The notes: generated by a model not told the origin, from the letters alone. A stretch of DNA of 64,000 nt from an uncultured virus (IMG/VR IMGVR_UViG_3300030330_001898) (IMGVR_UViG_3300030330_001898:1-64000); one strand, 5' to 3'; positions 1-25,119 are shown, counted from the first letter of the stretch. Program-made: numbers and translations.

Positions 1-1
1 A

Positions 2-280
2 GTGTGGTCAAGACCTTACGAGAGAGGGGCATTTACATTTGGGAAGAACTATGGCATTTGGTTAGGTATCTGTAATGCGTTAGATTTACCTATTGTCAAA
101 GTTCTTCCTAAAGAATGGCAATCAGAAATAGGAAATAGAATACCAAAAGAATATCAAAAACGTAAACAATATTTCAAACGTAGAGCAAAAACATTTGCAG
201 GCAGTAAACATAAAGTTACACTTAAGAATGCAGATGCAATATGTATTGGAATGTATGCATTAAAAAAGGAGGATAAATGA
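2..280 (+). CDS. RuvC-like Holliday junction resolvase (5' truncated by window)
   Basis: FTFGKNYGIWLG...V.PKEWQ...ADAICIG resembles the C-terminal half of phage RuvC-like resolvases; lies at the end of a + strand module. Confidence 0.7.
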   Translation: MWSRPYERGAFTFGKNYGIWLGICNALDLPIVKVLPKEWQSEIGNRIPKEYQKRKQYFKRRAKTFAGSKHKVTLKNADAICIGMYALKKEDK

Positions 281-510
281 GTATAGAATATGAAATAGAA
301 ATGCAACGTTTAAAAGTAATGCAAGAACAAAAGAATCGTAAAGAAAGAATTTTGATGGAAAAACAAATTAAGACTATTGAAAGTGAGCTAAAACAAATGA
401 AGTATAAATATTTCCAAGACTCAGCAATGTCAGCTAAAATCAAAGTAGTAGAAGACAATCTACAAATAATGAAACGATTCCTTACAGAAATAAAATCACA
501 AGATAACTAG
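277..510 (+). CDS. hypothetical coiled-coil protein
   Basis: GGAGG SD upstream; overlaps the previous stop; converges on the late module. Confidence 0.7.
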   Translation: MSIEYEIEMQRLKVMQEQKNRKERILMEKQIKTIESELKQMKYKYFQDSAMSAKIKVVEDNLQIMKRFLTEIKSQDN

Positions 511-512
511 GA

Positions 513-3170
513 TTACTGCTCGAGCTTGTTCAAAGACTTGAGCACATCCTGCACATTAACATCAAGTATTGTTTTCATAGGTGTTGGTTTTTTCTTATCT
601 AAATCAATACCTAAAAGACCAAGTAAGTTTTCTTTACGCTGTTTACTTTCTCTTGTTGGATATAATGCAAGTTCACCCATAAGCATACTACCAAGATTTT
701 CACCTGCTTGCCAACTAGGTATAACTTGTTTAATAAATCTTCTTGTACCTGGACTAACAATTTGTAATATCTCTTCTGAATAATCTGTGTCGTTAGCCAT
801 TTCTTCATAACCAGCGACATAAGATAACCAACTATCAGATTCCATTTCATATAGTCCCATAACATTAAACAATCCTACTGCATCACTAATGAAAGGACCA
901 CCTAATGTACCAATCAAAGGACCTTTACCAAAAAATTGTTCTTTACGAGTTTCTTCATCTAAAGATTTATAATAACTACTTAGTCTTTCGTATGTATCGT
1001 TTTGTACAAGATTACCAGTATTAATATTTAACAATGGTGCTAATACACCATTTAATACTGTATACATAAGACCTAATCTATACATTCTATATGCAGCTGG
1101 ATTGGTCCACTGACTAGTAAATACTGCATCTGTACCATCTCTTACAATTTTTCTTTGTAGATTAAAAAAGTTAATACCATAATGTTGAAATTGTCCTAAT
1201 ACAGAACCAACTGGAGTAGTTAATATTTTAGATTTACCAGGCATAGAATAGTCAAAATGTATGTTGTTTGTCATATCATTTGCATAATTTTCAGCTCTTC
1301 TTTCTAAAAATTCATTATACTCTTTTTCATACCTAGCACTATCTTTTTCTAATTCTTTAAATTTTTCAAAACCATTTTTACTTGTATATCTATTTTGAAA
1401 TAATTTTCTCATTAGTCTAGCGTTGTTAGCATCTACGTTCCAAGCTTTTGCATACGCTATACCAAATGTAAGTCTTCTGTTTACTCTATTTTCAACCCAA
1501 CTCATAGGTTTACCTAATGTCTCAGCTATACTTTCCATTTTACTTAAAATATTATCAGACATAGATAGGTCAACTACTTCTCTATATGTACCTGTTTTAG
1601 CATCATATTCAGTTTTAGTTAATTTAGAACCATATACTTCTGCAATTTCAGGGAATAAAATACCATTGTTTTTTAATCCTTTTTCAATACGTACACGCAT
1701 ATCTGCATTACCTAATGCTTCTCTATATTCACCAATACCTTTGTTGCCAAAAAATATCCAGTTAAATAAACTTTGTGTAGCATTTCTAGCTGCACCTCTA
1801 ATGTTTAATCCTAGTTTAGAACCAAACTCATAAGCTGTAATAGCTCTAGCTACATCAGTCATCATAGGTTTTTCTGCAAATTTAGAACCATCTATAATAC
1901 TATAAGTATCAGACATATAGTTTTTCAAAAATCTAAGTTTTTTATCTAATTGTTTATTGTTATTTTTTTGCATTAAGTCAGACATTTTGTGCATTGCGTC
2001 AATAAACTTTGAGGCATTATATATACTATAATTAAATCTTGATACACTATTACCGTATGAATGAATTAATGGTATAACATTGTAATCAATATGACTATCT
2101 ACTCTAGCTTGTTCACGCATATTTTTATTCATATATATATTTGAATCTAACAACTCACCTACTTTAGCTATTAAATCTATACCCTCTTGGTTTTGTTTTA
2201 TGTCAGATTTATTATATATTTTTGAACTTGCTTTAGATAATGTAGGTAAAATGTCAAAAGTTAATACAGGAAAGTATCCATCTTTTTGCAGTTCACCTGA
2301 TTCAAATCTTTTTATTAATCCTTCTATTTGTTTGTAAGCTGCATCAAAGTTATCTAGTTTAGAACTATATTCTTCTTTTCTTCTATTTAATACATTTCTA
2401 AAATTTTTTAATCCAGAAAGTAAAACATCTTTACCTTTTTTTTGTAATCCCCCTAAACCAGATTCACCTCTCCAAACCTGAACAGCACGTACAACATCTG
2501 CATATTTTTCTTCACGTACTTTTAACTTATATTCAGCTACAGGCATAGATGCTAGTTCATGAAATAATTGCAGAACTTTACCTTCTCCTTTTGTTACAAA
2601 TTCTTGTATTTCAGTTTCATAATATCTTTCAGCGTCTGCTTTCTTACCTTCTTGTTGTAGTTTATTGTATTTTTTATATTTGTTTGTAAGCTCACGTTGT
2701 AGTCTTTTAGAATCTAATCCTACTTTTTCAAAAAAAGATTCTTTGTATCCTTGTCTAGAAGCTGCTGGTCTAAGAAAATTAATAATTTGATTTACACCAT
2801 TGTTAAACTCTTGCGTATTACCTTTAAGAATTAAATCTGACCTTTGTACATCTTTGTACCAAGTTTTTAAAAATGGTATATCTGCATATATTTCATTTGG
2901 TAGATATAATAGCTCAGCTAATTTACCTCTATTTTTACCTACACGCTTTAACTCTCTATCTACTATTCTAGTTAGTAATTTTAATTCTTCTACCTTAGGC
3001 ATTCTATACTCCGCATCTGTAACTTGATATAGCAATTTTTTAAACATAGAAGTTTGTGTACCTTTATCAAATTGTTTTACTACATCATTATCAAGAAATT
3101 TTTTACCAATTATTTCTAGTGATTTTTCTCTTGTTTCAAAATCTTTAGTTACTGTTGTACATCTTGCCAT
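513..3170 (-). CDS. internal virion/ejection protein, homologous to the C-terminal part of the 3056-aa protein
   Basis: Likely ATG at 3170 (TAATG overlap, GGAGG SD). Shared blocks with 47969-57139: GYFPVL/GYFPRL, PMSWVE/PMKWSE, VGSVLGQFQHY/LGRVLTRFQPY. Confidence 0.65.
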   Translation of the reverse strand: MARCTTVTKDFETREKSLEIIGKKFLDNDVVKQFDKGTQTSMFKKLLYQVTDAEYRMPKVEELKLLTRIVDRELKRVGKNRGKLAELLYLPNEIYADIPFLKTWYKDVQRSDLILKGNTQEFNNGVNQIINFLRPAASRQGYKESFFEKVGLDSKRLQRELTNKYKKYNKLQQEGKKADAERYYETEIQEFVTKGEGKVLQLFHELASMPVAEYKLKVREEKYADVVRAVQVWRGESGLGGLQKKGKDVLLSGLKNFRNVLNRRKEEYSSKLDNFDAAYKQIEGLIKRFESGELQKDGYFPVLTFDILPTLSKASSKIYNKSDIKQNQEGIDLIAKVGELLDSNIYMNKNMREQARVDSHIDYNVIPLIHSYGNSVSRFNYSIYNASKFIDAMHKMSDLMQKNNNKQLDKKLRFLKNYMSDTYSIIDGSKFAEKPMMTDVARAITAYEFGSKLGLNIRGAARNATQSLFNWIFFGNKGIGEYREALGNADMRVRIEKGLKNNGILFPEIAEVYGSKLTKTEYDAKTGTYREVVDLSMSDNILSKMESIAETLGKPMSWVENRVNRRLTFGIAYAKAWNVDANNARLMRKLFQNRYTSKNGFEKFKELEKDSARYEKEYNEFLERRAENYANDMTNNIHFDYSMPGKSKILTTPVGSVLGQFQHYGINFFNLQRKIVRDGTDAVFTSQWTNPAAYRMYRLGLMYTVLNGVLAPLLNINTGNLVQNDTYERLSSYYKSLDEETRKEQFFGKGPLIGTLGGPFISDAVGLFNVMGLYEMESDSWLSYVAGYEEMANDTDYSEEILQIVSPGTRRFIKQVIPSWQAGENLGSMLMGELALYPTRESKQRKENLLGLLGIDLDKKKPTPMKTILDVNVQDVLKSLNKLEQ

Positions 3171-6100
3171 TAACAAACCTCCTTAGTTGTTTTACCTAAA
3201 TCAGAAATAAATTCTTTTACATTTTGTGTACCGCCATCATAATAGTCTTTTGTTATGTATGGGTCAATATCTGTTTCAGTACCTTTTATAATTTGTTTTA
3301 AACTATCTTCACTCTTTCTACTAAAAATATTAAACAATGCTTCGTTTTTTAAGGAGTTTTGGAATGTGTGCATACCATCTATCGCTTCAATTCTATTTTT
3401 TGTAATGCTATATGAAGGAGCTAAATTACCTCCGCTTAATACATCTTTTACGGTAGCTGTTCCAAACACATCTAAAAATGTTTGATAACTATCTAATCTA
3501 GAAGCACTTGATAATCTACCAGTTAATGTTTCTTCAGGATTAAATGATTGAAACAAACTAAACGCATCTCTTGTATGACCAGTAGGTAATAAATGTGGGA
3601 ATTGATATACCTCACCTGTAGTAATCTCTAATGGTAAACCATCTGAACTAAACTTAGAATTAATTCCATGTAGTTTTAAATATACTTGATTGTATGCTCC
3701 AGAATAATCTCTTACAAAATCACCTGTAAATTGCTTACTAAATCTTGGACTTTGTAATGCATATCCAGTTACCAAATTAATAAAAGATTCTGTATTAGTA
3801 TCTATTGGTTTTGGAAAATATTTATCTTGATATTTTACAATCTTAGTAAAATCTACTCTAGGAGTCATTATCTTTGTAAGAATAAATTCAGGTGCTACAT
3901 CATTGTATCTATCTAATATCCTATCAATTTTTTCAAACATATTTTGTTTAATTTGGTCAGGGTGAAATACTTCTTTATTGTTTAAGTTAAAGTAGTCTTT
4001 CCATGATTTATTATAAAAATCTTTTAGGTCTTTTATTTCTGTTTCAAAATCTCTTGATAGCTCTGTACTTTTGATACCCATACTTTCTAATGTTCGATTA
4101 CCTCTATAACTAAATGCATAACTCAATGCAATATTATTTACAAGGTCTGCATTATCAACAAAGTCTATATCTAATTTTTCTTTTTTAAATTGTTCTTTAG
4201 CTTGGTCGATTATTTCTTGTTTTTGTTTTGAATCTAAATCTGGTTGTTTACGATATTCTTTTGCTAATGCTTCAGTTACATAGCGTTGCTCTACTAATGC
4301 AAACATATTTTTATCTAAGTTAGATACATTAATAGCATTTTTTAAACTTTCTCTAGCTGTTTTTAATTTGTCTAATCTATTCGATAATGTTTCGTAATAC
4401 TCAGGACTTTCAAACTTATTAATTTTTTTCATATAAGATTCTTTTCTTCGTATTTCTACATCTATCTGTTTAGCTGCATTATATTTTTGTACATCAGTAT
4501 TAAAGTTTTCAACGAATTTTTTTGTACCTGTTGTACCAGCTTCCATAAATTCTATTGCAGTACTAATAGTTTCACTGAGTACACCTTCTGAGTTTGCTTT
4601 AGTAGGTTCTAATAATAAATTTTTAATTTGTGACATATCAGCTATTAGTCTATCAAAAGTTAAACTACTTCTCATATTAGTATTTTCTCCATATAACATT
4701 AATGATTTAGTATAACCACTAAATACACTTTCAACATTTTTAGGGTTTCCCAATTTCTTTTTAGCATTTTTACTTGCAAAAAATAATTGAGTATCAAAAT
4801 TACTAGAGTATGTAGCAATATCTCTTAGTGATACTTTTCGTTGTTGCCCACTATCATATAGTCTATTATTTAATTTTAAAAGTTGTCTATATGGTTGTAT
4901 AATATTTTCTTTTAACAATTTTATTTCAGTACTAGAAAACTCTGCATCTACTTGTTCGTATTTAGCACCTTCTGCTGTATCTTTAGTTGTAAGTTTATAA
5001 AGCTGAAATAGTCCTTTATTTGTTCTAACACCATTACCATCTATGCCAAAAAATATATCATCGTATAAAGAATTAATATCTTTAAATATGTTAGAATCAT
5101 ATCCATTGTCTTTATCTAGTATTGATTGCACTAGGTCAGCTATACGTTGATATGTTTTATTAACATCTGCTCTTACACCTATAAATCTTTGGTCTCCTGT
5201 TTTAGCTATAATAATTTTATTTTCACTTCTTCCATCAAAAAACTCTCCCTCTCTAGTACTTTTACCGCTTAATATTTTTTGTACTATTCTATTAGCATTA
5301 ATAGCTGAACCCATTACATATTGTGCATTATATTTTCTTTCTACATATCTTTCTCTAGATTCAAAATTTGTAAAGTCTATATCTTTAAATGAAGGATTAC
5401 TACCTACACCTAAAGGAACAGAATCTAAGACTTTACCTCTTGACTCTATAAATCCTAATGCAACATTATGAGGCATTTTCCATATAGCGCTACCAGAATC
5501 AATATCAAAATCTCCTTCTGCTGCTCTTTTCAAATCTGCATCATTTAATACAATTTGGTCTGCTTCATTTCTACTTCTAAATTTCTTTATACCTACAGGC
5601 ATAACACTTGAAGGTTTAGTATGTGGTTGTCTTTCGAAAAATGATAACACTTGATAACCTACTTTTTCAGCATTCTTTACAGCTTCTCCTAATGTTTCTA
5701 CATCTTTAATAATTGCTTGACCTTCTTTAGATGCACCATTAACTACTTCATCAGCTGCACCTTTTAACTTTTTCACTAAAGTAATATTGTTTTTATCTAT
5801 AGGTTTAAACTGTGCTGAGTATGGTAATTCTATTTCGCCAAATTTATAGTGTTGTCCATTTTCTAATATAATAGTGTTTTGTAGTTTTGTATCTGCTAAA
5901 AATGTACCAGGTGCTAATACTGCTGTACTGCCATCTACTTTTAACTGAAACATCTTATCAAGATATTGTTGTTTAATCATATCTTCCCACATTCTTGTTT
6001 TGATTGTAGGCATAGCACCAGAATCTGCTAGTAGTTTCATTAATGTATCATTACCAAATACTTCTAAATCACTATTTAATTTATTATTTATTCTATCTGT

Positions 6101-9100
6101 AGAAAGTCTTTGAAACTCTGCAATCATTTTAGCGTAGTTTGCTGGGTTTTTAAGTGATTGTATAAATGCTCTTTTATTATCAAACCCGTTAATATCTCTA
6201 ATATAATAATCATAATATTCATTTCTTTGAGTTCTATTTAACAAATGAACACTATTGTTAGCACCTAAAGATGCAAATTTTTTATTTTTCTTTGTAGATA
6301 TAATTGCAATATTTTCAGGACCAATAGGTACTATCTCTTTTATATTTTTACCAGATATTAATTTACTCATAGAAATTACTGGTGTCATTCTCTCTTTAGT
6401 TATTTTTTTACTAGCACTTGTAAATGTAATAAAATCTAAGTCAGGATTATTTTTAAATATTTGTTCTACTTTAGAATTATTGTTTTTTAAGAATGCTGTT
6501 TTATTTATAAATAATTGTGGTCCATTACCTAAATTATACATAATAGGTTTAATACCGCCTACGCTACTAGAACTAGTTTCTCCAGATAAAAATGATAACA
6601 TTTTAAATGTTTTGTCGCTTACAATAGTTACTCCATTTACAGTACTTGCATCTGCTATACCTAACTCTTGTAGTTGTATATTAAATTGAGATTTTTGTTC
6701 TTGTAATTGTCTTTGTATTTTTGGGTCTTTTGCTAATCCTATTTCAATATCGTAAGAATCATTTATTTGTTTATTTATACTTACTAAATTATCTATTGCT
6801 CCTGGTAACTCATCAGCAACAGTGACTTGTTTTAACTTGCCATCTCTAAATTGTTTTAATTTTTCTATAACTTCTGTTTTATATGTATCACTTTCAAATT
6901 TTATTTTATTAGCTTCAACAATATTAAACTGAACAAGTTGTTTATCAAAACGTAATGCGTTATTATTATTTATTAAACTATCACGTTTAAATAATCCTTT
7001 TATTAAGCCTATTCCTGATTGTTGTCTGAATCCTGTACCAAATATATTTTCACCACCAAGAGTGTCAGATAGTAATATATCATCTAATATCTGTGTTAGC
7101 TTTTGTGTTTCTTTTTGCCAAGCACTACCTATTGTATATTCATATTTACCTTCGTTTAAAACTATATCTACTTTTTTTAATTTTGTATCTATATTTTTAG
7201 GGTCAAACTTTTTTAACACTTCAGCATATCTATTTGCTATATTATTTAATACGTCTTGATTTTTTCTAATAAAATAAACATTGTCTGAATCAGCAAATCT
7301 ATATATAATACCAGGCTCAGCATTTACAGGAGCTTTATTATTTAATATATCTTTACCTGCTTGTGTTAAATCTACTTTTTCAAAAGTATTAAGTGTGTAA
7401 TCGCCTTCAAATGCTTTTTGCCTAAATGACTCCATAGACTTACCAATTAAAGGACCAGGTAGTCCTTCAGTATTAATAGTATTACTATTTACTTGTCTTA
7501 AGAAAGGTTGTGCATCTCCCATAGCTTTGAGCAATGCATCATCTATAGGTGTTCTATTTTTAATATCAGTTCTAGTCATACTATTGTCTGGTGCATTAGC
7601 ATTAAACTCTAGTATTTCTACTTCTGTATTATTTTTTAACTGGGTGTAGAATGATTTCATTGACATTCTAACTCCATCTATTTCTGCTTGACTTAGTTTA
7701 GGGTTTTGTTTTACAACATCATTTACAAAATCTTCACTAAATTTATTAAAATTGTTTTGATACTCAGGAGTATTGTATACTTCTTGTATCTTTTTTAAAG
7801 GTTGTTCTGCTAATAAATCATTTGCTCTAAACTTACTATCTGTAGGTAAAGCATAAGTATTAAGTATTTCTCCTAATTTTATTTTGTTTTGCTCTGTAAA
7901 ATCTTTAGGAAAAAAATCACCTTGTTCTCTAATTTCAGTTGCCGCTTTTTCAGTATCTACAAAGTCTATAATTTTGTTGTCTCTCATTTCTTTTAAACGA
8001 GCTTCAACCTGAGTTTCGCTTAGCTTATCTGTTTTCCAAGACCTTGTTTGTGTATCATATAAGTCATATTTAATTGCAGATTCATATAGCTTAATAGGAT
8101 TTTTACTAAATGTCATCATATTCATTAATGATTTCATTGCTTTTTTTGTACCAGCGAACTCTACTCTATCTACTTGATATATATCATTTAAAAATAATCT
8201 CACATCTTCAGTAACCATATTGTTTTTAATTAAATTTAAACGTTGTGCTAATTGATTAACTTGTATAAAATCACCACCACTTGTTAAATCACTTCTATTT
8301 AAAACACCTTTACCATCTGTTCCTCTTACATATTTACCAAATGTATCATCAATCATCTTAACAGTATTTTCAAATATCTCATTAAATCTAAATATAGAAC
8401 CAGGAGTATCTCCTACTACTTGTTTTACTTCTTTTAGTGTTTGTTTTATTACTGCTGTTTCAGCATTACTTTGCCCAACAAATGATTCAATAGCTGAAAA
8501 ATTATTATCTTTAGTAATTTTATTTAATACATCAGATTCAACTACTTTGAACATTGCTTCTGTAACGGGTCTATATTGTAAATTAGAGCCAATAATACCA
8601 TGGTCCATACCTACTTGTATAATATTTCTATCTGTTTGCGTTAATAGCCTACCAGTATTATCCGTACCATTGATTAATAAATTTCTCATATATTTGCTTG
8701 TAATTAATCTACCCATAGCATTTATAGGCATAGCAATACTATAATCAGCTGGTGAAGCAAAAGCCATAATACCTTTATCTTTTAATATTTCTAATATATT
8801 TCTTGCTTGTTTAGCGTCTATTGTTTTTACAGACGCACTTTCATTAGAAAAAAGTTTATCATAACTATCATCAAATTTGCTTACTACATCTAGAATAGCA
8901 TTCATTTTCTTTTCTAGTGTTTTATTTCCTTTTACTTGAATCTTTGCAGCTAAAATATCGTTTTGTGCTCTAAATGTATTTGAAAAATTAGCATTGGTAT
9001 TAAATACATCTAAAATACCTTCACCATTTTTATTAGCTGCTGCTTTAATAACATTAATATTTATTCTATTTAAATCTAAAGCTGAACGCAATACACTATC

Positions 9101-14420: not shown

Positions 14421-14449
14421 AATATATTACTTATAGTCATAACTTTCAA
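14421..14449 (-). promoter_or_regulatory. sigma70-like promoter for the ejection-protein operon
   Basis: TTGAAA-N17-TATATT in the intergenic gap, followed by AGGA SD and ATG at 14397. Confidence 0.6.
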
Positions 14450-14454
14450 CTGTT

Positions 14455-14754: not shown

Positions 14755-15932
14755 TATTTTATACTTTTTTGTCTTAAAATTATTGACATATCATTTATTT
14801 CAAAATCAGCTGATACATTTTGACCACTTACATCTTCAAATTTTATACTAAATGTTTTAATATTATTTGCATTAGATTGAGTAAATAATTCAATAACTGT
14901 GAAGTCTGCACTACCAGGTATATTATTAATTTGAGAACCAGAACTATCTAAAAAATTATTATTATATGCTCCTCCGTCTACAGAATATTTAGGTAAAACA
15001 TTTGTATTTCCTCCACTAGCTCCTCTATAAGTTAATTCTATTTTTATAACTTTCTTTTTAGCTTGGGTGCCAAAGTTTAATTCTTTAAACTGAACATTAA
15101 AATTATTTATAGCTTCTGTAGGATTTGATTGCCAAGGAACAATAGTTGTTTGATTAGTTGTGTTTTCAAAACCATAAATTAAACTACCATCCCACATATT
15201 TATTAAGTTTGTTTTATCTTCAGTATTTAATCTAGCTGTTCCTTTTACCCAAGAACTTGTAACCATATCGTAAACTAAAATATCACCACTATTGTTTGTA
15301 GAATTTTTAAAAGATTTTATAATAACTAGTTGTTTTGATTTAGGAGAAAACCCTATCATTGTTTCTCCGTCTACGTAAAAACTATTCCACAAAGATTCTG
15401 ATATAAAACGAACTCCTTCTTTTACTAATAAATCTCCTACCTGTCTACCATTATATAGATATACTCCATGTTGGTTACACCAAGCAACACCAAAATCAGT
15501 TTCACATACTGCGTTATGATGTGATACTCCTTTATGTTTATGTGTAGCTTCTAAAAATTCTTGGCTTTTAGTTGCGTTAATTATGTATAATGTATTTTGT
15601 TTGTATTGCAATAGTCTATCAGCATAAGTTGCTAGTCTGATAATTTCTTCACCATCATTAACTGCAACGTCAATTCTTCTATCCATTGTAAAAGTATCAA
15701 ATTGTCCAGCCCTAGACTTAAATACACTATCGCTTAGAATGCGTTCTTTGTTATGTTTATCAACTAATTTTACATTTCCTAAGTATAACCTTTGTCCAAT
15801 TAAAACAGACGTTTTCCATTTGATTTGTTTTATTAAATGTTCTTGCCTTAATCTTTTATTAGCTAAAGGTGGAAAATTAAAAGGAACTCCTAATCTATAT
15901 TTACCTGGATTCATTACTGCGTAGTTAGGCAT
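14754..15932 (-). CDS. tail nozzle/stabilization protein, C-terminal part
   Basis: RLYLGNV...SDSVFKSRAGQFD...DGEEIIRL...RLLQYK aligns with the C-half of 60284-62710; beta-rich. Confidence 0.6.
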   Translation of the reverse strand: MPNYAVMNPGKYRLGVPFNFPPLANKRLRQEHLIKQIKWKTSVLIGQRLYLGNVKLVDKHNKERILSDSVFKSRAGQFDTFTMDRRIDVAVNDGEEIIRLATYADRLLQYKQNTLYIINATKSQEFLEATHKHKGVSHHNAVCETDFGVAWCNQHGVYLYNGRQVGDLLVKEGVRFISESLWNSFYVDGETMIGFSPKSKQLVIIKSFKNSTNNSGDILVYDMVTSSWVKGTARLNTEDKTNLINMWDGSLIYGFENTTNQTTIVPWQSNPTEAINNFNVQFKELNFGTQAKKKVIKIELTYRGASGGNTNVLPKYSVDGGAYNNNFLDSSGSQINNIPGSADFTVIELFTQSNANNIKTFSIKFEDVSGQNVSADFEINDMSIILRQKSIK

Positions 15933-17485
15933 TAGTACTCCCTTTCTTGTTGGTCTTCATCATAATCAGGTGGAGCTGATAAACCACTATCTTCAATAGT
16001 CATTGTTTTTATACCACTATCTGCTATAACATCAAAGTTTTCATCTAATACTTGTACTCTAAATTCTCTATCTGTTCCATGTGTTGGTAATGTCATAGGA
16101 ATGTAATAAGTATCTATAGTAGTTCCTGGTGTATCAGATATACCAGTTTTTAATGCAATTCTATTTCCAGATACACCCCCTACATATAAAGGAGATACTG
16201 CTCCCCCCCAAACTCTTATAAATCCAAATCTATTATCAAATCCATTAACATTAGTGTTGCTTAATTTTACTCTTAAATATACATTAGAATAAGATTTACC
16301 TGCTTGAGTAGAACCATTTCCAGTTCCTTCCCAATCAGTTCCAGTTCCATCTGCATTATCAGAAAAAGCAATATGATTAACCATAGAACCACTATTATCT
16401 AAAATATCTACACCTTCAAACGATTGTTTCGTAGAACCTTGAGCTGCTGGAGTAACCTCAAGTCCTACCCACTTACCGTGAGTAGTTTCGTTTTGTGGGT
16501 CGTATATATCCCAAAAATGTTTACCACCTTCTTTTAAATCTGTATGCATTAAAAATATCCAATCATCATCTGCTTGTTCTTTAAAATAAAAGTTTAATCC
16601 AATTAAACGATTGTCTCCAAATATGTTATCACCAGATAAAGATGTTGGTTTAGAGCCAGCAGTTCCTGCTCCTATAAATACTTGAAAAGAAATTTGTTCG
16701 TTATACAAAGGTATAGAATCTTCCACTCTATTTAAAAAGTCACTATAGAATATTGATATTTCTCCTTCTTGATTACCTTGATAAATTGGTGTTGCTCCAA
16801 ATGTAAAGTTTCCATTCCACTCTCCACCTTCAGTACTTTTATATCCTAAAATTAAACTACCTTTTTGCGCAGTAATAGTAGAAGCGTTAGGACTAGAGTT
16901 TTCTATATTTACTAATTTCATATTTACACCTGATAAAGCATCAAGCTTACGAAGTTTTTGATTGCCGCTATCCCATTTAGTTATATCGTGTAAGTTTGTA
17001 GAATTACCTCTATCATCAGTCCAAAACAATGATTGGTCTATATATCCAAACCATTTACTATCTTGACTAAAAGAAGCATCTCCAATACGTAATAAACCAT
17101 CACCATAATAGTAATTTGGTTTTATATTGCCACCAAACGTTACTTCATCAGATAAAAAATTAGGGCTAGAACCATCTTTATCTCTATAATAAAAACGAAC
17201 TTTAGTGTTTGCTTTATCATATACTGCTAGATAATCATCTGGATTATTAGCACTTGCGTGGTCGTAGTCTGAAGAAAAATAATGTAGTCCATATCCAGGC
17301 TCAATATCAGCGGTAGCACCACTTGTAATAGCACTACCTTTGTTTCCTAAACCTACTAGTCTACCTATCTTATGAGTAGATACACCATCAGCTTCACGTA
17401 AATCTATATCACGTATATCTTTTGCGTCAGAATTGTCATGTATTCCACCATGAAATCCTAATATTTTAAACTCTTTTTTTGGCAT
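15932..17485 (-). CDS. tail nozzle/stabilization protein, N-terminal part
   Basis: MPKKEFKILGFHGGI start, typical FxGG N-terminus of P22 gp10/T7 gp12-like proteins; matches MPKKTINITNFSGGL. Confidence 0.6.
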   Translation of the reverse strand: MPKKEFKILGFHGGIHDNSDAKDIRDIDLREADGVSTHKIGRLVGLGNKGSAITSGATADIEPGYGLHYFSSDYDHASANNPDDYLAVYDKANTKVRFYYRDKDGSSPNFLSDEVTFGGNIKPNYYYGDGLLRIGDASFSQDSKWFGYIDQSLFWTDDRGNSTNLHDITKWDSGNQKLRKLDALSGVNMKLVNIENSSPNASTITAQKGSLILGYKSTEGGEWNGNFTFGATPIYQGNQEGEISIFYSDFLNRVEDSIPLYNEQISFQVFIGAGTAGSKPTSLSGDNIFGDNRLIGLNFYFKEQADDDWIFLMHTDLKEGGKHFWDIYDPQNETTHGKWVGLEVTPAAQGSTKQSFEGVDILDNSGSMVNHIAFSDNADGTGTDWEGTGNGSTQAGKSYSNVYLRVKLSNTNVNGFDNRFGFIRVWGGAVSPLYVGGVSGNRIALKTGISDTPGTTIDTYYIPMTLPTHGTDREFRVQVLDENFDVIADSGIKTMTIEDSGLSAPPDYDEDQQEREY

Positions 17486-17488
17486 TGA

Positions 17489-17518
17489 TTAACATCCACA
17501 TCCGCATTCACAGTTCAT
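17489..17518 (-). CDS. putative 9-aa Cys-rich micropeptide MNCECGCGC (not in ORF track)
   Basis: AGGAGG SD 5 nt upstream of ATG; fills the gap between flanking genes. Confidence 0.45.
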   Translation of the reverse strand: MNCECGCGC

Positions 17519-17527
17519 GCTAACCTC

Positions 17528-17680
17528 CTATTTTAATGCTTTTCTTACTTCAGCCCAAACTTCATCATCTAGTTTATTGTCAGACTTAGCAATAAAATAA
17601 TCGCCTAGCTTTAATAATACAGCTTTAAGAATTTTTTCGCTTAAGAGGCTTGTAAGTAATTTACTAACTACAATATTCAT
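17528..17680 (-). CDS. small amphipathic protein, possibly lysis-related (50 aa, not in ORF track)
   Basis: MNIVVSKLLTSLLSEKILKAVLLKLGDYFIAKSDNKLDDEVWAEVRKALK; GGAG SD; clear homologue at 63649-63807. Confidence 0.7.
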   Translation of the reverse strand: MNIVVSKLLTSLLSEKILKAVLLKLGDYFIAKSDNKLDDEVWAEVRKALK

Positions 17681-17688
17681 ATTATCTC

Positions 17689-18075
17689 CTATTTAATTTC
17701 CTTTTTTATCTTATCAAATACCTCTTTCTCGTTAAACCTCATACTAATACCAGGTTCAAATCTTCTAACCTCTTTACCATTTTTTAAAATAATAATTGTA
17801 GGCACAACTTTTATTTTCCATTCTTTTTGTATTACTGCACCAACAGCTTTATTTGTTAAATCTATTTCAGCTACATAACAATCTTTTAGTTTTTCTATTG
17901 GTAATCTATTTTTAAAATTCCAAGATGCATTGACTTGTATAACGGCACATTCTTCTAAACTTACTAATTGTATTTTTTGAAAATTGTCTAAGTTAACTGA
18001 TTGCGAGTGCAACGACGATTGCAGCAGCAATAAACCAAAGACACCAAAAAATAAATTGTAATATTTTTTCATCAT
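17689..18075 (-). CDS. exported thioredoxin-fold protein lacking CxxC
   Basis: Signal peptide; NASWN in place of WCxxC; IKVVPTIIILKNGKEV thioredoxin cis-Pro motif. Confidence 0.65.
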   Translation of the reverse strand: MMKKYYNLFFGVFGLLLLQSSLHSQSVNLDNFQKIQLVSLEECAVIQVNASWNFKNRLPIEKLKDCYVAEIDLTNKAVGAVIQKEWKIKVVPTIIILKNGKEVRRFEPGISMRFNEKEVFDKIKKEIK

Positions 18076-18084
18076 AGTCTTTCC

Positions 18085-18381
18085 TCATTTGTTATTCATG
18101 TCAATAAGCGTTTCAGTTATAGCTCTAGTATCTTCTTTAATATCGTCTACTTTTTCTTCTAACTTATCAACTTTACCTTCAGTATTTAATATTGACTCAC
18201 GAATCATCTGGTCTTTTAAATCATATTCCATACGTGATACTTCTGGTTCTGGTAATTCTTTAGCAAGTTCTATTTCTGCTTGAAGTGAATACCACATACC
18301 TATAACCATACCTATAGTTACAGCAATACTGATTGCAGTTTCTATAGAAAGTGTAAATTTTGTGTCTTTACCGACTTCCAT
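18085..18381 (-). CDS. single-TM coiled-coil protein (holin/spanin-like candidate)
   Basis: One N-terminal hydrophobic helix followed by a heptad-rich region. Confidence 0.5.
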   Translation of the reverse strand: MEVGKDTKFTLSIETAISIAVTIGMVIGMWYSLQAEIELAKELPEPEVSRMEYDLKDQMIRESILNTEGKVDKLEEKVDDIKEDTRAITETLIDMNNK

Positions 18382-18411
18382 TTTAGTCCCCTATTATTGT
18401 AAATTAAAGTT

Positions 18412-18429
18412 AGGGGGATTGCTCCCCCT
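18412..18429 (-). terminator. hairpin with GCAA tetraloop
   Basis: AGGGGGA-GCAA-TCCCCCT just after the stop of 18436-18600; weak U tract. Confidence 0.55.
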
Positions 18430-18435
18430 CCCTTT

Positions 18436-18600
18436 CTACTTTTCCTCTTTTGGTAGAGGAGGTATAACCTTAAAGCCTTGTTCTTTTAAACCAACAATAT
18501 AGTTATACATACCACGTAATTCAGCTATTTGAGCCTCAATAGATTTTAGAGTATCATCTAAATTCATTTCTTGTTGTTGCTCTACTTTTTCTTTAGCCAT
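18436..18600 (-). CDS. small coiled-coil protein (54 aa, not in ORF track)
   Basis: MAKEKVEQQQEMNLDD...; GGAG SD; similar in start and position to the ORF at 63807-64000. Confidence 0.6.
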   Translation of the reverse strand: MAKEKVEQQQEMNLDDTLKSIEAQIAELRGMYNYIVGLKEQGFKVIPPLPKEEK

Positions 18601-18669
18601 TATATTCTCCTTATTACTATTAATAGTTTTATAATTTATTAAGTATACATATTAATTTCCATAAGTATT

Positions 18670-18990
18670 TTATTGCCCAGGTCCACCACCAGCAATGTGG
18701 TCTCCGCCTATAGCATGACTCATGTGAAATGGTTGTGTAAGAAAATTTTGTAATTGACTAGTCGTTGCATTTGAATTTGGTGTGCTTTGTAATGGATTAT
18801 TACTGCCACCAATTTTTTCAAACGCACTACATGGACCACCAGTGCTAGTATTAGCAAAAGTATTTAATATACCATTTACTGTTACACCACCAACAAAAAT
18901 AGATTTCATGCTTAAATTAGTAGTTTGTACTACCTTACATTCATCAGCTATTTGTGCTTTTAACTTCACATTTGTATTACTTACTGCCAT
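18670..18990 (-). CDS. tail-fibre-associated hypothetical protein
   Basis: Translationally coupled downstream of the tail fibre. Confidence 0.55.
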   Translation of the reverse strand: MAVSNTNVKLKAQIADECKVVQTTNLSMKSIFVGGVTVNGILNTFANTSTGGPCSAFEKIGGSNNPLQSTPNSNATTSQLQNFLTQPFHMSHAIGGDHIAGGGPGQ

Positions 18991-19238
18991 TATTCAGCAT
19001 CTCTTATTGCTACATAGTCTGCCATTTCAGATTCACACTCAGCAAGTTGTGCTTCTAAATTAGCTTTATGTGCTTCACATTCTGATATAGCTTCATCTAC
19101 TAACTTAGTTTCAGTCCAATCTACTACTTCTACATTTTTACCAGCTGGACTTTTCATAGTTCTTGTATGTTTAATTTCAACCATTTTTGTTGATTCTTCT
19201 GGTGATGCTGCTTCTGTTGAACTTATTATTTTAGCCAT
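18990..19238 (-). CDS. tail-fibre-associated hypothetical protein
   Basis: Overlaps the fibre stop; C-terminal coiled coil. Confidence 0.55.
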   Translation of the reverse strand: MAKIISSTEAASPEESTKMVEIKHTRTMKSPAGKNVEVVDWTETKLVDEAISECEAHKANLEAQLAECESEMADYVAIRDAE

Positions 19239-22200
19239 TTAACTTCTCCTCTAATTTGTTTATTTGTTCTTGTTGTTGTTGAACTGCTTTAATTAATACA
19301 GCAGTTAATTTTTCATAATCCATTGTTTTAATCTTATCATCAAACCATTCATTGTCTTTTACAATTTCAGGTATTACTTCTTCTACTTCTTGTGCAATGA
19401 ATCCTATATCTTTCCTATTATCTTTCTTCCAATCATACTGCTTTGGTTTTAGTTTCATAATAGTATCTAAACCATATTCAATATCTTTAACATTTGTTTT
19501 TAGCTTTCTATCAGATGGTGTTGAAGAAAATGCTACTACATCATTTGATACATGAAAAGCACCAGTAGAAGTTATATTAATTCTATCTGCACCTGCGTCT
19601 GAATCTCTAATTCTTAATTTTTCTCCATTAGTTCCAATAGTTGTTATAGACCACCTATCAGTTCCATTTGTTCTAAATCTTATACCTGCATTACCATTAT
19701 GAGTTTCAGTTTCAGATATGATACCACCTGAGCCATGTCCAGTTCCACTTTCTTTTATGTGAAGTTTTGCAGATGCAAAAGCACTACCTGTACCAACAGC
19801 TAAACCTGTGCTATTTATTTGTGCAAAATATGTACCACCACCTGCACTTCTAAACCTATGCCCTCCATTGTCATAGTAATGATTAGCATCTCCATTATCT
19901 CCAAGAAATATAGCATTGACACCTTGTGGCGTTCTTAACATAGTATAAGTACCATTATTTGTTAATGTTATTACACTTCCATTATCTGAACTATGAGTTA
20001 TAACCCCGTCATCTGCTCTTATATATCCGTCTGTTTGTATATCTCCACCTGCTACTGATAATTTAAAGCTTGGTGAGTTAGTTCCTATCCCAACATTTCC
20101 AGTAGTATGAGCAATACAAAATCTTACTGCATGGCTTTGACTTTGGTCTTCTATACCCCAAAAAGATGAAGGAATATTTGAAGAACCTGAACTTGCACCA
20201 CCAACACCTGCATTCCAATTATATGCAGTATCTCTACCATATTTAATTGTAGCACCATAGCTTGCATCTCCTTGTAAATATATACATTCTCCATTAGTTG
20301 TAGAAGTTGCTATGTGTAAAGGTCTGGAAGGTGATGTAGTTCGTATTCCAACATTTAAATTTCCATCTACAGATAAAGCAGTACCTACACCAGTTCTACC
20401 TAAACCTACCATTTCATTACTGCCAAAAGAACTACCAAACTGAATATAACCCATATCAGTAGCATCTATTCTTCTTCTTATTCTTTCTCTTGTAGTAGTC
20501 CAATCACTACCATTTGATACTCTTTCAGTTGAAAATATTAACTGATTTACATTAGCAGATGAAGATTCAAGTTTTAAATTATCAACACTATCACCTGAAG
20601 TACCTCCAAGAGAAAAGTCGCTTGATGCGTGTCCAATATGTAAAGTAGCATCAGCAGTTGTATTTCCTATTGCAATTTTATTTGCACCACTATCTACAAA
20701 AAACATATAAGCATTATCATTAGACTCTACTCTAAAATCAGTAGTTGCGTATGAGCCGTCATTAATAATAACACCATTTGCACTGTCAACAATAAGATTA
20801 TGTCTACCACCTGCACTTAGTCCTAACGAGTCAGAGCCATTTCTAAACATACCTGTATCTGTATCTGATACAAAACTATAACTTGGAGTACCTGCACTTC
20901 CTAAAACATTATTTCTTATACCATAACTACCAAATCTTGCTCTTTCTACTGTATCTCCATAAATTTTAGTTTCTGATGCTTCAATTTCAATTCTATCATC
21001 ATCGTTTAATCCTCTTGCTAATCTAGCATTCACACCATGATTACTTCTATAATATCCTGTTTGTGAAGCATAATCACCTGGTGTTTCAGTCACATCGTAT
21101 TGAGTCATGTTAGCTATATACCAAGTAAAGGCTGAATCACTTCCACCTGAAACATAGATAAAACCAGAAGTACTGAATGTACCACCTGTTCCTGCATGAC
21201 ATACTCTTGCGTACCACTCCCATTTACCAGTACCTTCAGGTGAAGTTAAAAAATAATCGATAGCACCAGTTCCCATAGAGTTAGCTGCTGTATTAAATGT
21301 TCTACCACTTGGTAGTTTAGCTTGAAATATTTGTACAAATGTATGATTTTTTTCAGTATTTATAAGTTGATAAACACCACCAAAACCTGGGCTAGTAGTT
21401 CCATTACCATTGTAAGCAACCTTAATTACTTTACCACTAGAATTTGGAGGTACTATACCATCATCTGATGCTGTAATTCTTGAAACTACAAGATTCTCGC
21501 CTCCTGCATTATTATATCGAATTACACTATTACTGCTATGAGCAAAATCTTCATCTAAATATCTTTGTTTACCACTATTTCTAACAGATGCTACAATAGG
21601 ATGAAAACCACCTCTTTCTGAAGAATTACTGGTTACCTCGTATATTCTTCTGTCATCTATAAAATAACCATTACTATTTAATGTATTAATTCCATTGTTT
21701 GTTATTGATGCACGAACAACACCACCTGTTGAAAAACCTATTTGGTCTCCTGTCATTAGATACATACCTGTGTTTGTATCGCTAGAAAAACTATAAGCAG
21801 GATTACCTACTGAATGATTAGGTGCTCTAAATGTGGCATTACCAGTAATACCTTGACTCGCTCCATCTACAAAAAAACCGCCATCAGACCTAATATATCT
21901 TGGTGTATAAATATTTTTATTAGTAGACTGATTTATTCTTAACCAAGTACTATCAGTAGCTTGTATATCTCCTATAATAGTGCCACTTTCAGTAATATTA
22001 AGTCTTTCTGCATTAATTGTTCCAGATGATTTAACATCTCCTGCTATGTCTAACTTTACTGAAGGTGAGTTCGTACCAATACCAACCCTATCATTACCAC
22101 CATCAGTAAATAATAAATTAGCATCACTTGAACTTTCTACTCTAAAATCTATATTTTTACTTAATTCATTTATAACAACATTAGAATTATTTATTTCAAA

Positions 22201-24285
22201 TAAATTAATATCAGAACTATAAAATTTTACACCTCTTGCAGTAGGGCTAGTGCCATTTATTTCTTCTCCTGTTACAGTTGGACTTGCTTCTTGCGTAAGT
22301 GGATTTTCTATACTCCAATTAGGATTATATTTATCTCGTGTAAATGTTACACGCATTGATTGTGTATTTTCGCTTTGCGATGTGCTTATTTCAAAATATG
22401 CTTGTAACTCTGTTGTGCTTCCAGTTTCTATAATTCTTACTTTTGTAATATCGTTGGTTTGATTACTGACTTCACATCTTATTAAATTACCGCTCCAATC
22501 AACCTGAAAATCACAAGTAAAAGTTCTTGGACCAAAATATCCACCAGTAAAGCTAATACCAATAATTCCACCACCTCTTGCATTTGCAGCTGCTGCACTT
22601 GCTATTGTATACCAACCTGATACTGCAGGACTTGTAACACCTGCATAATCTGTAACTAATACACTACCTGCTCTATTAGTTCCGTGTGGGTCAGGAATAT
22701 TTATTGGAATCTTAGAGGAATCTATAATGGTAGTTCCGTCCATTTGATAAACACCATTTGTATTGATATTTCCTGATGTACTTATTGAACCAGAAAGACT
22801 GCCAAAGCTTAAAGCTCCAGTAACATTTAAAGCTCCAGTGACAGTTGCACCAGTATTTGTAGTTTCTATCTTGTTACTACCATCATAATAAATTAATGCA
22901 CCTCCATTTGCATTAAATCTAATAGCATTTTCAAATGCATTACCAACAGGATTGTGATGTCTAATCTGTAAATAATTACTACCTTCTAAAGTTTCTACAT
23001 CTATATTTTTATTACCATTACCAGTAAAGTCTAACTCACTTTGTAATTTTAATGCATTTTGAAAAGTTTTAGTACCTGTAAAAGTCTGATTACCAGACAA
23101 GTGTGCAGTATCTGCGTCTAATCTTGCAGAAGCAATAGTACCACTTGTTATATTGCTACCATTTAATCCAGATGAAGAAGTTAAAAATGCAGATGCGTGA
23201 CTACCGTCTAATGTGTCAGCGTCTAATCCACTATTAGCTCCGTCATTACCACTATGCCATATCTTGTTGTCATATCTACCTACACTATCAAAATTAGTTT
23301 CACTATCTCTACCAGCTCTAAAATATAATTCATCGTTATAATGTGCATAAAGTTCTAAACTTCTTGTACTTCCACCTACTCCAGTAAAAGAAACTAATAA
23401 AGTACTATGTCCAGTTTCATTTACTTGATATAGTCCAGTTGCTTTTGCATTTTCTGTTGTAGTTCCACCAGTTAAAGTGCCAAGATTTTCTTTAAAAACT
23501 GTTGAAGGTATTCTTGCATCTGCTATTGTTCCAGATGAAATTAAATTAGCTGGTATAGTATCTAATAATGCTAAATCACCTAATTGTAAATTAGTTCTTG
23601 CACCTGCTGCACTTGTAGCACCAGTACCTCCTTCTGCTAACGCTAATGCTGTACCTAATGTTAAAGAACCAGGTATATCAACAACTCCACCAGTAGTAAT
23701 ACTAAGTTGTGCAGTTGAGTTGTTTCTAAATTCATAAGTTTTTGAACTTGGATTTATAATGTTAGCAACAAAATAACTTTCACCACTACCAAATGTAGTG
23801 TATGTGGCATCATTTGTTTTTTGTAATTTTACTTGAGGATAAGCAGCGTTAATGTGTAAAGGTTGTGAAGGTGATGATGTTCCTATGCCTAATTGATTTG
23901 CTACATATAAATCTGAATTAGAATTATTACCAATAGCTACATTACCATCTACATATCTTTGAAGATGTAACCATGATGCACCATCTAATGATTTTATTTC
24001 TGAATTTGTGTTTAATTGTACACCTCTACCATTTGAACTATTTTCTATCTCAAAATGGTTTCCATCAAAAGTTAAACTACCTTCAGAATTGATACCACCA
24101 GAACCATCATCAGTAAGTAATTGATTGTTAGAGCCAGATGTAGGCGAAGAGCCAATAGGTGTTATGGTGCTACCTACTTTAGTATATAGTTGATTATTAG
24201 TATAATCATATACTAATTCGTATTCATCTATAGCACCTTGAGAAGGTGCACCATCTCCCCTTTTTATTAAGAACTTATTAGCCAT
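19231..24285 (-). CDS. long tail fibre with C-terminal peptidase S74 intramolecular chaperone
   Basis: Repeated VGIGTxSP units, DADTLDG motif, C-terminal SDRKLK...IGFIAQEVEEVIPEIV plus coiled coil. Confidence 0.9.
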   Translation of the reverse strand: MANKFLIKRGDGAPSQGAIDEYELVYDYTNNQLYTKVGSTITPIGSSPTSGSNNQLLTDDGSGGINSEGSLTFDGNHFEIENSSNGRGVQLNTNSEIKSLDGASWLHLQRYVDGNVAIGNNSNSDLYVANQLGIGTSSPSQPLHINAAYPQVKLQKTNDATYTTFGSGESYFVANIINPSSKTYEFRNNSTAQLSITTGGVVDIPGSLTLGTALALAEGGTGATSAAGARTNLQLGDLALLDTIPANLISSGTIADARIPSTVFKENLGTLTGGTTTENAKATGLYQVNETGHSTLLVSFTGVGGSTRSLELYAHYNDELYFRAGRDSETNFDSVGRYDNKIWHSGNDGANSGLDADTLDGSHASAFLTSSSGLNGSNITSGTIASARLDADTAHLSGNQTFTGTKTFQNALKLQSELDFTGNGNKNIDVETLEGSNYLQIRHHNPVGNAFENAIRFNANGGALIYYDGSNKIETTNTGATVTGALNVTGALSFGSLSGSISTSGNINTNGVYQMDGTTIIDSSKIPINIPDPHGTNRAGSVLVTDYAGVTSPAVSGWYTIASAAAANARGGGIIGISFTGGYFGPRTFTCDFQVDWSGNLIRCEVSNQTNDITKVRIIETGSTTELQAYFEISTSQSENTQSMRVTFTRDKYNPNWSIENPLTQEASPTVTGEEINGTSPTARGVKFYSSDINLFEINNSNVVINELSKNIDFRVESSSDANLLFTDGGNDRVGIGTNSPSVKLDIAGDVKSSGTINAERLNITESGTIIGDIQATDSTWLRINQSTNKNIYTPRYIRSDGGFFVDGASQGITGNATFRAPNHSVGNPAYSFSSDTNTGMYLMTGDQIGFSTGGVVRASITNNGINTLNSNGYFIDDRRIYEVTSNSSERGGFHPIVASVRNSGKQRYLDEDFAHSSNSVIRYNNAGGENLVVSRITASDDGIVPPNSSGKVIKVAYNGNGTTSPGFGGVYQLINTEKNHTFVQIFQAKLPSGRTFNTAANSMGTGAIDYFLTSPEGTGKWEWYARVCHAGTGGTFSTSGFIYVSGGSDSAFTWYIANMTQYDVTETPGDYASQTGYYRSNHGVNARLARGLNDDDRIEIEASETKIYGDTVERARFGSYGIRNNVLGSAGTPSYSFVSDTDTGMFRNGSDSLGLSAGGRHNLIVDSANGVIINDGSYATTDFRVESNDNAYMFFVDSGANKIAIGNTTADATLHIGHASSDFSLGGTSGDSVDNLKLESSSANVNQLIFSTERVSNGSDWTTTRERIRRRIDATDMGYIQFGSSFGSNEMVGLGRTGVGTALSVDGNLNVGIRTTSPSRPLHIATSTTNGECIYLQGDASYGATIKYGRDTAYNWNAGVGGASSGSSNIPSSFWGIEDQSQSHAVRFCIAHTTGNVGIGTNSPSFKLSVAGGDIQTDGYIRADDGVITHSSDNGSVITLTNNGTYTMLRTPQGVNAIFLGDNGDANHYYDNGGHRFRSAGGGTYFAQINSTGLAVGTGSAFASAKLHIKESGTGHGSGGIISETETHNGNAGIRFRTNGTDRWSITTIGTNGEKLRIRDSDAGADRINITSTGAFHVSNDVVAFSSTPSDRKLKTNVKDIEYGLDTIMKLKPKQYDWKKDNRKDIGFIAQEVEEVIPEIVKDNEWFDDKIKTMDYEKLTAVLIKAVQQQQEQINKLEEKLNG

Positions 24286-24294
24286 TACAACCTA

Positions 24295-25119
24295 TTATGT
24301 AGTATATGTTCCAAAATTTAAAGTAGTATTTGCAATACCACCTGTTAATGTAGCTGCTCCCGAACATTTAAATGTACCAGTAACATCAGTATTTTTATTT
24401 AATTCCCACTGAGTTCCGTCGTCATCATATAAAATGCTAGGACAACCGCTCCATCCACCTACAATAATACCAGCTCCATCTGACGTTGATGAGTTTGTTG
24501 CATTTTTACCAATTTCTACCACTTTATCTTCTACTGTTAAAGTAGATGTATTTAATGTAACAGTATCACCTTCTACAGTCAAATCTCCTGTAAGTGTAAG
24601 ATTTCTCATTCCTGTTAAATCTTTATTGCCGTCTAATATAACTGCTTTACTTGCAGATGCTGTACCAGCTGTAACTCCGTCTACTAAGTTCAACTCTGCA
24701 GCTGTTGATGTAACGCTAGTACCACCAATTTGTAATGTAGTCATATTCAACTCACCGCTTGAACCATAAATAGCTGCTTTACTATTTACAACTGTTCCAG
24801 CTGAAGCTCCATCTACTAAATTTAATTCAGCTGCTGTTGATGTTGTAGCTAAACTTAATCCTCCGTCATTAGCAATATTAAAGTCAGTTGTATCAATTTT
24901 AACAACACCTTTTTGATTTGAAGTTGCTACTGGTACTATGGTAGCACCAAGATCTGTTGTTGTTACATCTGATGCCTGTCCATTATTAGCTGTTTGTCTA
25001 CCTATGTATAATTTTTGCGATGCACCGTCGTATGCTAACTCACCAGTTAACAAATCATTAGTACCAGGAGCACCACTTTGTCCGAAGACATTTCTTTTAA
25101 TCTGTAATCTATTTGCCAT
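24295..25119 (-). CDS. short tail fibre/fibre-anchor protein
   Basis: N-terminal LQIKR...GELAY...KLYIG anchor similar to the long fibre; two TSTAAELNLVDG repeats. Confidence 0.7.
   Translation of the reverse strand: MANRLQIKRNVFGQSGAPGTNDLLTGELAYDGASQKLYIGRQTANNGQASDVTTTDLGATIVPVATSNQKGVVKIDTTDFNIANDGGLSLATTSTAAELNLVDGASAGTVVNSKAAIYGSSGELNMTTLQIGGTSVTSTAAELNLVDGVTAGTASASKAVILDGNKDLTGMRNLTLTGDLTVEGDTVTLNTSTLTVEDKVVEIGKNATNSSTSDGAGIIVGGWSGCPSILYDDDGTQWELNKNTDVTGTFKCSGAATLTGGIANTTLNFGTYTT

Follow-up and report, generated by a model that had tools for sequence, protein, structure and literature searches.

The DNA analysed here is a stretch of 64,000 nucleotides (nt) from an uncultured virus (IMG/VR IMGVR_UViG_3300030330_001898:1-64000; hereafter the window), with which a single virus record of 69,528 bp (G000) begins. 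Our subject is the tetranucleotide GATC, which is missing from its left part and frequent in the rest. We believe, with a probability of roughly 85%, that G000 is a metagenome scaffold of chimeric origin, combining two marine phages that co-occur, are only distantly related and have a common genome architecture, and that the join was probably made in silico rather than in nature. Phage A would be a 46,650-bp circle (22879-69528) with a near-ordinary GATC frequency, while a second phage, B', would have contributed only 1-22801 and would belong to a lineage that lost every GATC. A 250-nt stretch of the tail-fibre gene that is identical in both phages (22802-23051) would have acted as a four-armed repeat, at which the assembler joined the upstream arm of A to the downstream arm of B; the distal fibre of A at the right end of the record and a head-side contig of B would have been left as dead ends. 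The GATC-free tract would then be the sum of the purge in lineage B and an unremarkable gap of about 2 kb in phage A. With two phages stitched in a shared fibre stretch, the sharp GATC switch would not be a property of one genome.

GATC counts and the two modules of the record

A computed scan counted 101 GATC in the window. The left part, 1-24950, has none, and the leftmost site is at 24951, as an earlier note on this DNA had claimed from a manual reading. The site positions quoted there were correct to within 1 nt (26618 and 27065, given as 26617 and 27064), and the "dozens" it expected in the left part come to 52-67: base composition gives 66.8, a maximal-order Markov model 52.4 and the density of the remaining record 59.9; the probability of finding none is about 1e-23 to 1e-26. 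For 1-22801 alone, 47 were expected under the Markov model and 0 observed. The whole record has 107 GATC, and its next-longest GATC-free gap is 1954 nt. In a ranking of all strand-symmetrised 4-6-mers by depletion in the left part, GATC came first (p 9.8e-27). Every word ranked 2-11 contained GATC, and the best left-depleted word without it, ATCCA, reached a p of only 2.6e-6, so the depletion is site-specific and not a general shift in k-mers. G+C content is nearly equal on both sides (0.309 left, 0.318 right). CATATG was also absent from the left part (0, vs 18 in the remainder).

G000 carries two diverged fibre and post-fibre modules. Its region from 22.9 to 69.5 kb holds a full A-type gene set, and 1-22.8 kb adds a second, B-type set, which leaves the record with two fibres, two post-fibre gene sets and two giant open reading frames (ORFs), all single-copy in relatives. 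Self-comparison aligned 21053-22878 with 67703-69528 at 88.5%, 18662-19410 with 65417-66168 at 80.6% and 17690-18395 with 64717-65413 at 79.2%. Five A-type relatives (G005-G009; CheckV 92-100% complete, 44.8-50.8 kb) each have a single tail module, consisting of a 274-amino-acid (aa) ORF, fibre, small genes, phosphoesterase, 825-aa ORF, lysozyme, giant ORF and replication genes. They are syntenic with phage A at 45-95% aa identity and of matching size, and their capsid proteins are 75-91% identical to that of phage A. For the eight left-specific ORFs (92, 78, 887, 2773, 379, 170, 412 and 99 aa), no homologue was found in any of these five relatives (0/8).

One real 69.5-kb genome that had obtained two diverged tail modules by duplication or double acquisition would account for this gene content, and the record is indeed a single scaffold rated 100% complete by CheckV; but complete relatives with such similar capsid proteins are smaller by a factor of about 1.45, the right end of the record breaks off at an exact internal repeat within a fibre ORF, its GATC-free part matches a lineage whose head genes are GATC-free as well, and depth is unequal between its parts, all of which makes such a genome very improbable.

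The join inside the tail-fibre gene

As recorded, the 1684-aa fibre ORF is a hybrid of an A-type N-terminal part, the shared 250-nt stretch and a B' distal part. Two arms enter the shared stretch and two leave it. G000 follows the upstream arm of A into the downstream arm of B, and the other two arms stop at the repeat, with exact overlaps of 77, 88 and 97 nt within 22802-23051. The 77-nt overlap is the longest suffix recurring internally, of exactly this length both in G000 and in G001, a second IMG/VR record that is 99.96-100% identical to G000 15839-69528; the flanks of the repeat are 88.5% alike. The fibre ORF at the right end is open to the record end (1198 codons in G001, which fills the gap of G000) and coordinate arithmetic places it in frame with codon 470 of the left fibre; if the record is closed through this overlap, the circle of phage A described above results. 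The overlaps of 88 and 97 nt belong to two contigs, G011 (17.1 kb) and G012 (11.7 kb), which contain 0 GATC, carry B-type heads and share 86-93% nt identity with G003, a B-type record described below. Both run from B-type portal and capsid genes through a fibre N-terminus of their own, a 481-codon ORF open at the contig end; the end of G012 is 100% identical to 23051-22955 (97 nt) and that of G011 to 23051-22964 (88 nt). Beyond 23051 on the right this similarity ends, and their closest match to the window is 66% over 24048-24482. The lineage-specific N-terminal parts of the fibres are about 411 aa (A) and 451 aa (B) long, and the distal parts are 88-100% alike. A 60-nt exact pattern from the shared stretch occurred only in G001, G011 and G012 among the viral contigs searched, and the IMG/VR names of G011 and G001 share a sample number.

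Public sequencing runs were used to look at the junction from outside the record. Eight marine-metagenome runs from two studies contain 95-97% of the words sampled from 20500-25500. Four of the runs (X2, X3, X9 and X12) were compared over 14000-32000 on the basis of short, fragmented Logan contigs; X12 was thin, with 26/30 bins covered, and was used for no claim. A contig of X2 (23251-25255, 2005 nt) bridges both the fibre start at 24285 and the first GATC at 24951 with 0 differences, and a contig of X3 (23137-24837, 1701 nt) bridges 24285 only, also with 0 differences. The proposal of the earlier note that the two halves are joined at 24.3-24.95 kb is ruled out by these zero-difference contigs of two runs, and the switch of origin lies instead at 22802-23051, inside the 1684-aa fibre ORF. 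The scaffold gaps of the two IMG/VR records also fall in the fibre copies. The gap of G000, a run of 10 N at 67693-67702, is in the right copy and that of G001 is in the left copy (equivalent to G000 21007-21048), both beside a second shared node at 20911-20991. A loose end of X2 at 20911 is identical to G000 67582-67611, so a contig leading from A's own module into the second node exists in that run.

Among the exact-match pieces listed, mean k-mer depth to the left and right of the join was 51.3 and 31.6 in X2 (3 and 5 exact-match pieces; ratio 1.63), 53.2 and 40.3 in X3 (3 and 5 pieces; ratio 1.32), and 6.5 and 3.7 in X9 (7 pieces and 1 piece; ratio 1.75). Depth falls rightward across the join, where a rise would be expected if the left genome ran on into a stretch that phage A also has. 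A natural mosaic should be one molecule of equal abundance throughout, free of redundant modules and of packageable size; what we found were redundant modules, a 1.45-fold over-length and unequal depth. The suggestion of the earlier note that the two halves evolved under different host restriction-modification regimes stands as far as separate histories are concerned, one part being GATC-purged as judged by its GATC-free relatives and by synonymous codon choice (see below), whereas a single mosaic genome is not supported, and the record bears the marks of an assembler mis-join of two co-occurring phages.

At its right end, the GATC-free tract includes 2072 nt (22879-24950) that belong to phage A, made up of the N-terminal part of the A-type fibre and the greater part of the 274-aa ORF. 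From 24152 rightward the best matches were GATC-containing contigs (L124 at 82.6%, L010 at 94.9% and L005 at 91.2%), six loci that are pieces of G001 having been excluded from the comparison. A GATC-free gap of this length has a probability of 0.0086 at the density of phage A, and about 0.9 such gaps are expected among 107; the 2.07-kb gap is unremarkable. Import of 22879-24950 from a GATC-free lineage was considered and is not needed, given the gap expectation and the A-type character of the segment. Fibre genes as a class are nevertheless poor in GATC. Six fibre ORFs or parts of GATC-containing phages (G005, G006, G008, G009 and phage A, the latter counted over 22879-24285 and 65983-69528) had 8 GATC vs 32.9 expected from the density of each genome (P about 2e-7). 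Adding two rows left out of this first sum, the fused 2134-aa ORF of G007 (13 vs 19.5) and a 790-aa ORF of G006 (3 vs 5.2), gave 24 vs 57.6 (P about 5e-7). Local Markov expectations do not predict this deficit.

Fibre segments do move between these lineages, as shown by the identical 250-nt stretch and by exact runs of 38-132 nt where the surrounding identity is 76-88%, and the same join is present in two scaffolds. Together with the shortage of GATC in the fibre genes of GATC-containing relatives, this is what would be seen if an A-type phage had naturally acquired a B-type distal fibre and the whole B-type post-fibre module by a crossover in the shared stretch, with G000 then merging such a recombinant and ordinary phage A in a single path. 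In such a case, however, depth should rise across the join, and it falls; no second crossover was seen, and both unused arms dead-end at the repeat. An A-type head with a B-type module was found in none of the 5 complete A-type genomes and in neither of the 2 B-type records holding both parts (0/5 and 0/2). The parts may also not fit, since the nozzle-like B-type proteins of 517 and 392 aa are only 26-35% identical to the 825-aa protein of A, and the heads are about 30% identical. We therefore consider a natural recombinant unlikely.

Several observations weigh against a scaffold assembled in silico from two phages. G001, a second scaffold with its gap elsewhere, carries the same join, which means either that the path was found twice or that both scaffolds come from the same graph ambiguity. 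The dead-end overlaps of 77, 88 and 97 nt do not correspond to one k-mer size, and because of the other two, no k-mer size was deduced from the 77-nt overlap. The public runs were compared as fragmented contigs, and 22802-23051 was bridged by none of the 32 pieces listed (529 more exist), a result on which no claim rests. A search of metagenome contigs with the 60-nt pattern gave no match, and no independent assembly bridging the repeat was found. The closed circle of phage A would follow from the overlap, and no independent contig linking its distal fibre to 22879 onward was seen. Contig depth is a poor measure, and we use the contrast as supporting evidence only; it is weak in X3, in which the ranges nearly touch (45 left, 45.8 right), it depends on one listed right-side piece in X9, and it may be compatible with a minority of true recombinants.

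A similar arrangement was noticed in another IMG/VR record. G010 (89.8 kb; loci L145-L149) contains an A-type genome twice over, in collinear, diverged copies that lie about 44-46 kb apart and share 66-91% nt identity. Its terminal 88 nt are found again inside the record, at 43862, and it too is probably a scaffold of two phages.

GATC-free and GATC-containing lineages

Relatives of both parts were found among uncultured viruses. Both halves were compared with 50,697 phage records by megablast, without a match; tblastn of the 392-aa left ORF found none either, and the terminase is at most 26% identical to that of any cultured phage in the collection. In IMG/VR, the major capsid protein had 421 relatives, and GATC was present in all of the loci kept around them (80/80, 1.07-4.24 per kb; one of these, L001, is part of G001). 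The 412-aa protein of the left part had only three relatives there, G002 (36.7 kb), G003 (44.2 kb) and G004 (15.6 kb), and these have 0 GATC over their entire records. Each of the 16 ORFs of 1-19238 has a homologue in G002, and for 14 the aa identity is 73-99%. In capsid, portal and terminase, G000 shares only 29-30% identity with G002 and G003. The latter two have the same genome architecture, and their terminase, portal and capsid genes are also free of GATC. From these comparisons, G002 and G003 represent a distinct B-type lineage that is GATC-free in its head genes too.

The loss holds throughout the B-type sequences collected: each of 10 records or loci (G002-G004, G011, G012 and L135-L139, the last five being further loci of 12-21 kb) has 0 GATC over 11.7-44.2 kb, and G002-G004 together with L129 and L130 have 0 vs 283 expected under the Markov model in 116.7 kb. 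Purging extends beyond the B-type, as six contigs with A-type heads (where covered) have a total of 1 GATC vs 191 expected; for their heads, identities are 55-57% (capsid), 68-82% (portal) and 78-80% (terminase). The A-type genomes G005-G009 have 506 vs 785 expected (ratio 0.64).

Regional selection within one genome, such that for instance a first-entering or unmethylated part must avoid GATC, would suit a tract that touches one end of the record. The left-part relatives are, however, GATC-free over entire records of 36.7 and 44.2 kb including terminase, portal and capsid, which rules out selection by order of DNA entry, and the right-part relatives have no such tract in the equivalent region; we give regional selection hardly any credence.

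The purge in lineage B is real and acts at synonymous sites. In 16 ORFs of B', Asp before a codon starting with C was never encoded by GAT (0/23, with GAC in 23/23), while it was in 79 of 96 cases (82%) in 59 ORFs of A; in other contexts, GAT was used equally in the two sets (323/378 and 739/872, both 85%). Likewise, Ile after a codon ending in G was encoded by ATC in 0/29 cases in B' vs 10/112 in A, and Ser after a codon ending in GA by TCN in 0/6 vs 16/36. Of the GATC sites in the right copy, three could be aligned and stand as AATC, GGTC and GATT in the left copy; three more lie opposite unaligned sequence. The purge is most likely ordinary restriction-site avoidance directed against a host GATC-cutting restriction enzyme. 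Other sites are avoided in different sets: CCGG is absent in every lineage (0 vs 7-39 expected) and CGCG nearly so, and GGCC (0 vs 16) and GCTAGC (0 vs 13) are absent only in the B-type. GAATTC and GGTACC are low in all lineages, in the window as in relatives. Six-frame searches of G000 with PF02086, PF05869, PF01555 and PF00145 found no DNA methyltransferase that could explain the tolerance of GATC in phage A.

Outside the window, the B-type record G002 encodes a putative 286-aa DNA adenine methyltransferase of the D12/Dam family (L091:12746-13606, minus strand), next to a DnaB gene and about 1.5 kb beyond the homologue of the left end of our record. It matches PF02086 at 94.2 bits (cut-off 22) and shows FxGxG and DPPY motifs in alignment to DpnM, and it stays below the NCBIfam cut-off for TIGR00571 (dam), with 100.9 vs 114.85 bits. 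Its gaps relative to DpnM and E. coli Dam fall where we take the recognition hairpin of those enzymes to lie. Five other contigs have this methyltransferase at 95-97% identity and 0 GATC over 12-21 kb, so that 6/6 loci including that of G002 are GATC-free. Were GATC the motif methylated by the putative enzyme, the phage, which lacks the site, would offer no target and be immune, and the enzyme would have to act on host DNA; it might then, for example, expose the chromosome to a methyl-dependent nuclease of the host, or interfere with host replication or repair. That the loss of GATC in B is more than passive escape, and jointly that the deficit in fibre genes stems from repeated one-way import from GATC-free lineages, seems to us quite improbable.

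Gene content and comparison with known systems

The 76 ORFs of G000 were called by our own script, and the features that bear on the argument are collected in Table 1. A minus-strand block runs from about 36.6 kb down to 0.5 kb, with terminase, portal, capsid, small ORFs, the 274-aa ORF, fibre and the left ORFs; a second minus-strand block, from 47969 to the record end, carries the 3056-aa giant ORF, lysozyme, the 825-aa ORF, a metallophosphoesterase, small ORFs and the second fibre ORF.

Table 1. Parts of the record and principal genes, with the basis of each assignment
Feature	Coordinates	Strand	Basis
Phage B' branch, GATC-free lineage (probable origin)	1-22801	.	0 GATC, G002 homologues
Stretch of 250 nt identical in both phages, fibre codons ~412-495	22802-23051	.	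Ends of G011 and G012, record end
Exact repeat of the terminal 77 nt (69452-69528)	22802-22878	.	Longest internally recurring suffix
Phage A sequence without GATC (probable origin): A-type fibre N-terminal part (to 24285) and most of the 274-aa ORF	23052-24950	.	Zero-difference contigs at A-type depth, best matches, gap length
Phage A, GATC-containing (probable origin), continuing to 69528 beyond the window	24951-64000	.	101 GATC, synteny
Second near-exact node, matching 67612-67692 (80/81 identical)	20911-20991	.	Beside scaffold gaps of G000 and G001
887-aa ORF	513-3176	-	Phage B' branch
2773-aa giant ORF	3170-11491	-	Phage B' branch
Left-part ORFs of 517, 392, 99, 412, 170 and 379 aa	within 1-22801	-	Phage B' branch
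Small post-fibre genes, second copy at 63644-66168	17523-19410	-	68-81% nt identity; exact runs of 38, 132, 83 and 48 nt
1684-aa tail-fibre ORF, C-terminal S74 chaperone domain	19231-24285	-	PHROG tail-fibre matches, Pfam PF13884
274-aa ORF, carries the first GATC (24951)	24295-25119	-	Directly upstream of fibre in all relatives
Major capsid protein	28933-30375	-	PHROG/Pfam
Portal	31313-33643	-	PHROG/Pfam
Terminase	33790-35274	-	PHROG/Pfam
Replication genes	36.8-47.8 kb	+	Phage A
3056-aa giant ORF	47969-57139	-	Phage A post-fibre module

Annotation of the left part was sparse. PHROGs gave no match for the 11 ORFs tested between 513 and 19238, and Pfam gave only three matches on the left part, each below its curated cut-off. 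The giant ORFs of 2773 and 3056 aa occupy the same place in the two modules and have no detectable similarity to each other's lineage; neither matched Pfam or PHROG, and in a protein atlas the 3056-aa ORF led to unnamed clusters and to LPD38/LPD39 domains at 0.86, a lead too weak to use. The 825-aa ORF of A (60284-62761, minus strand) corresponds to two adjacent B-type ORFs (14754-17485, minus strand), the 517-aa ORF resembling its N-terminal part (26-31%) and the 392-aa ORF its C-terminal part (29-35%); between lineages A and B, one gene was split or two were fused. The 274-aa ORF contains an internal direct repeat (24638-24711 and 24770-24843; 75 nt, 78.7% identity). In the replication module of phage A, a JAB-like ORF (PF14464, just under cut-off) and an adjacent ThiF-family ORF (PF00899) lie at 40890-42448 on the plus strand, and this pair is kept at 35-72% in 5/5 A-type relatives.

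The GATC switch in this record should not be read as a mosaic genome; G000 and G001 should be flagged as probable chimeras, and G010 looks alike. A restriction-site profile is a cheap finder of such joins where G+C does not differ. The comparison also indicates that an abundant family of uncultured marine phages splits into GATC-free lineages and lineages with ordinary GATC, which co-occur in samples and exchange fibre segments. Distal parts of tail fibres are exchanged as modules behind a lineage-specific N-terminal anchor, and the A and B fibres fit this pattern, which accounts only for the shared repeat and does not join two genomes.

GATC purging itself is a known kind of adaptation. Elimination of GATC from Staphylococcus phage K is reported and read there as avoidance of Sau3A restriction (PMC6532042), and phiX174 is described as devoid of GATC (PMC5014478). 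Like phage K, lineage B has lost the site completely over a large sequence (0 vs 283 in 116.7 kb), which we read as probable escape from a GATC-cutting Type II enzyme; unlike phage K, these are uncultured marine phages, and sister lineages of the same family keep GATC. In the account of Rusinov et al. 2018 in BMC Genomics, short palindromes are under-represented in double-stranded DNA phages, and GATC is given as depleted in 46/46 phages whose hosts carry a matching enzyme (PMC6286503). The lineages studied here resemble this pattern in that they avoid different sets of sites, CCGG in all and GGCC and GCTAGC only in the B-type, although that study pairs phages with known hosts and a matching enzyme is presumed in our case.

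The join has its own precedent. Chimeric contigs are described by Roux et al. 2017 in PeerJ as a known outcome where co-existing viruses share highly similar regions, and made up less than 5% of contigs of at least 10 kb in the simulations reported (PMC5610896). The join found here lies in an identical stretch, of 250 nt, common to two co-occurring phages. The two genomes, unlike those in that study, are not strains: their head proteins are about 30% identical, and only fibre-related segments are common to both.

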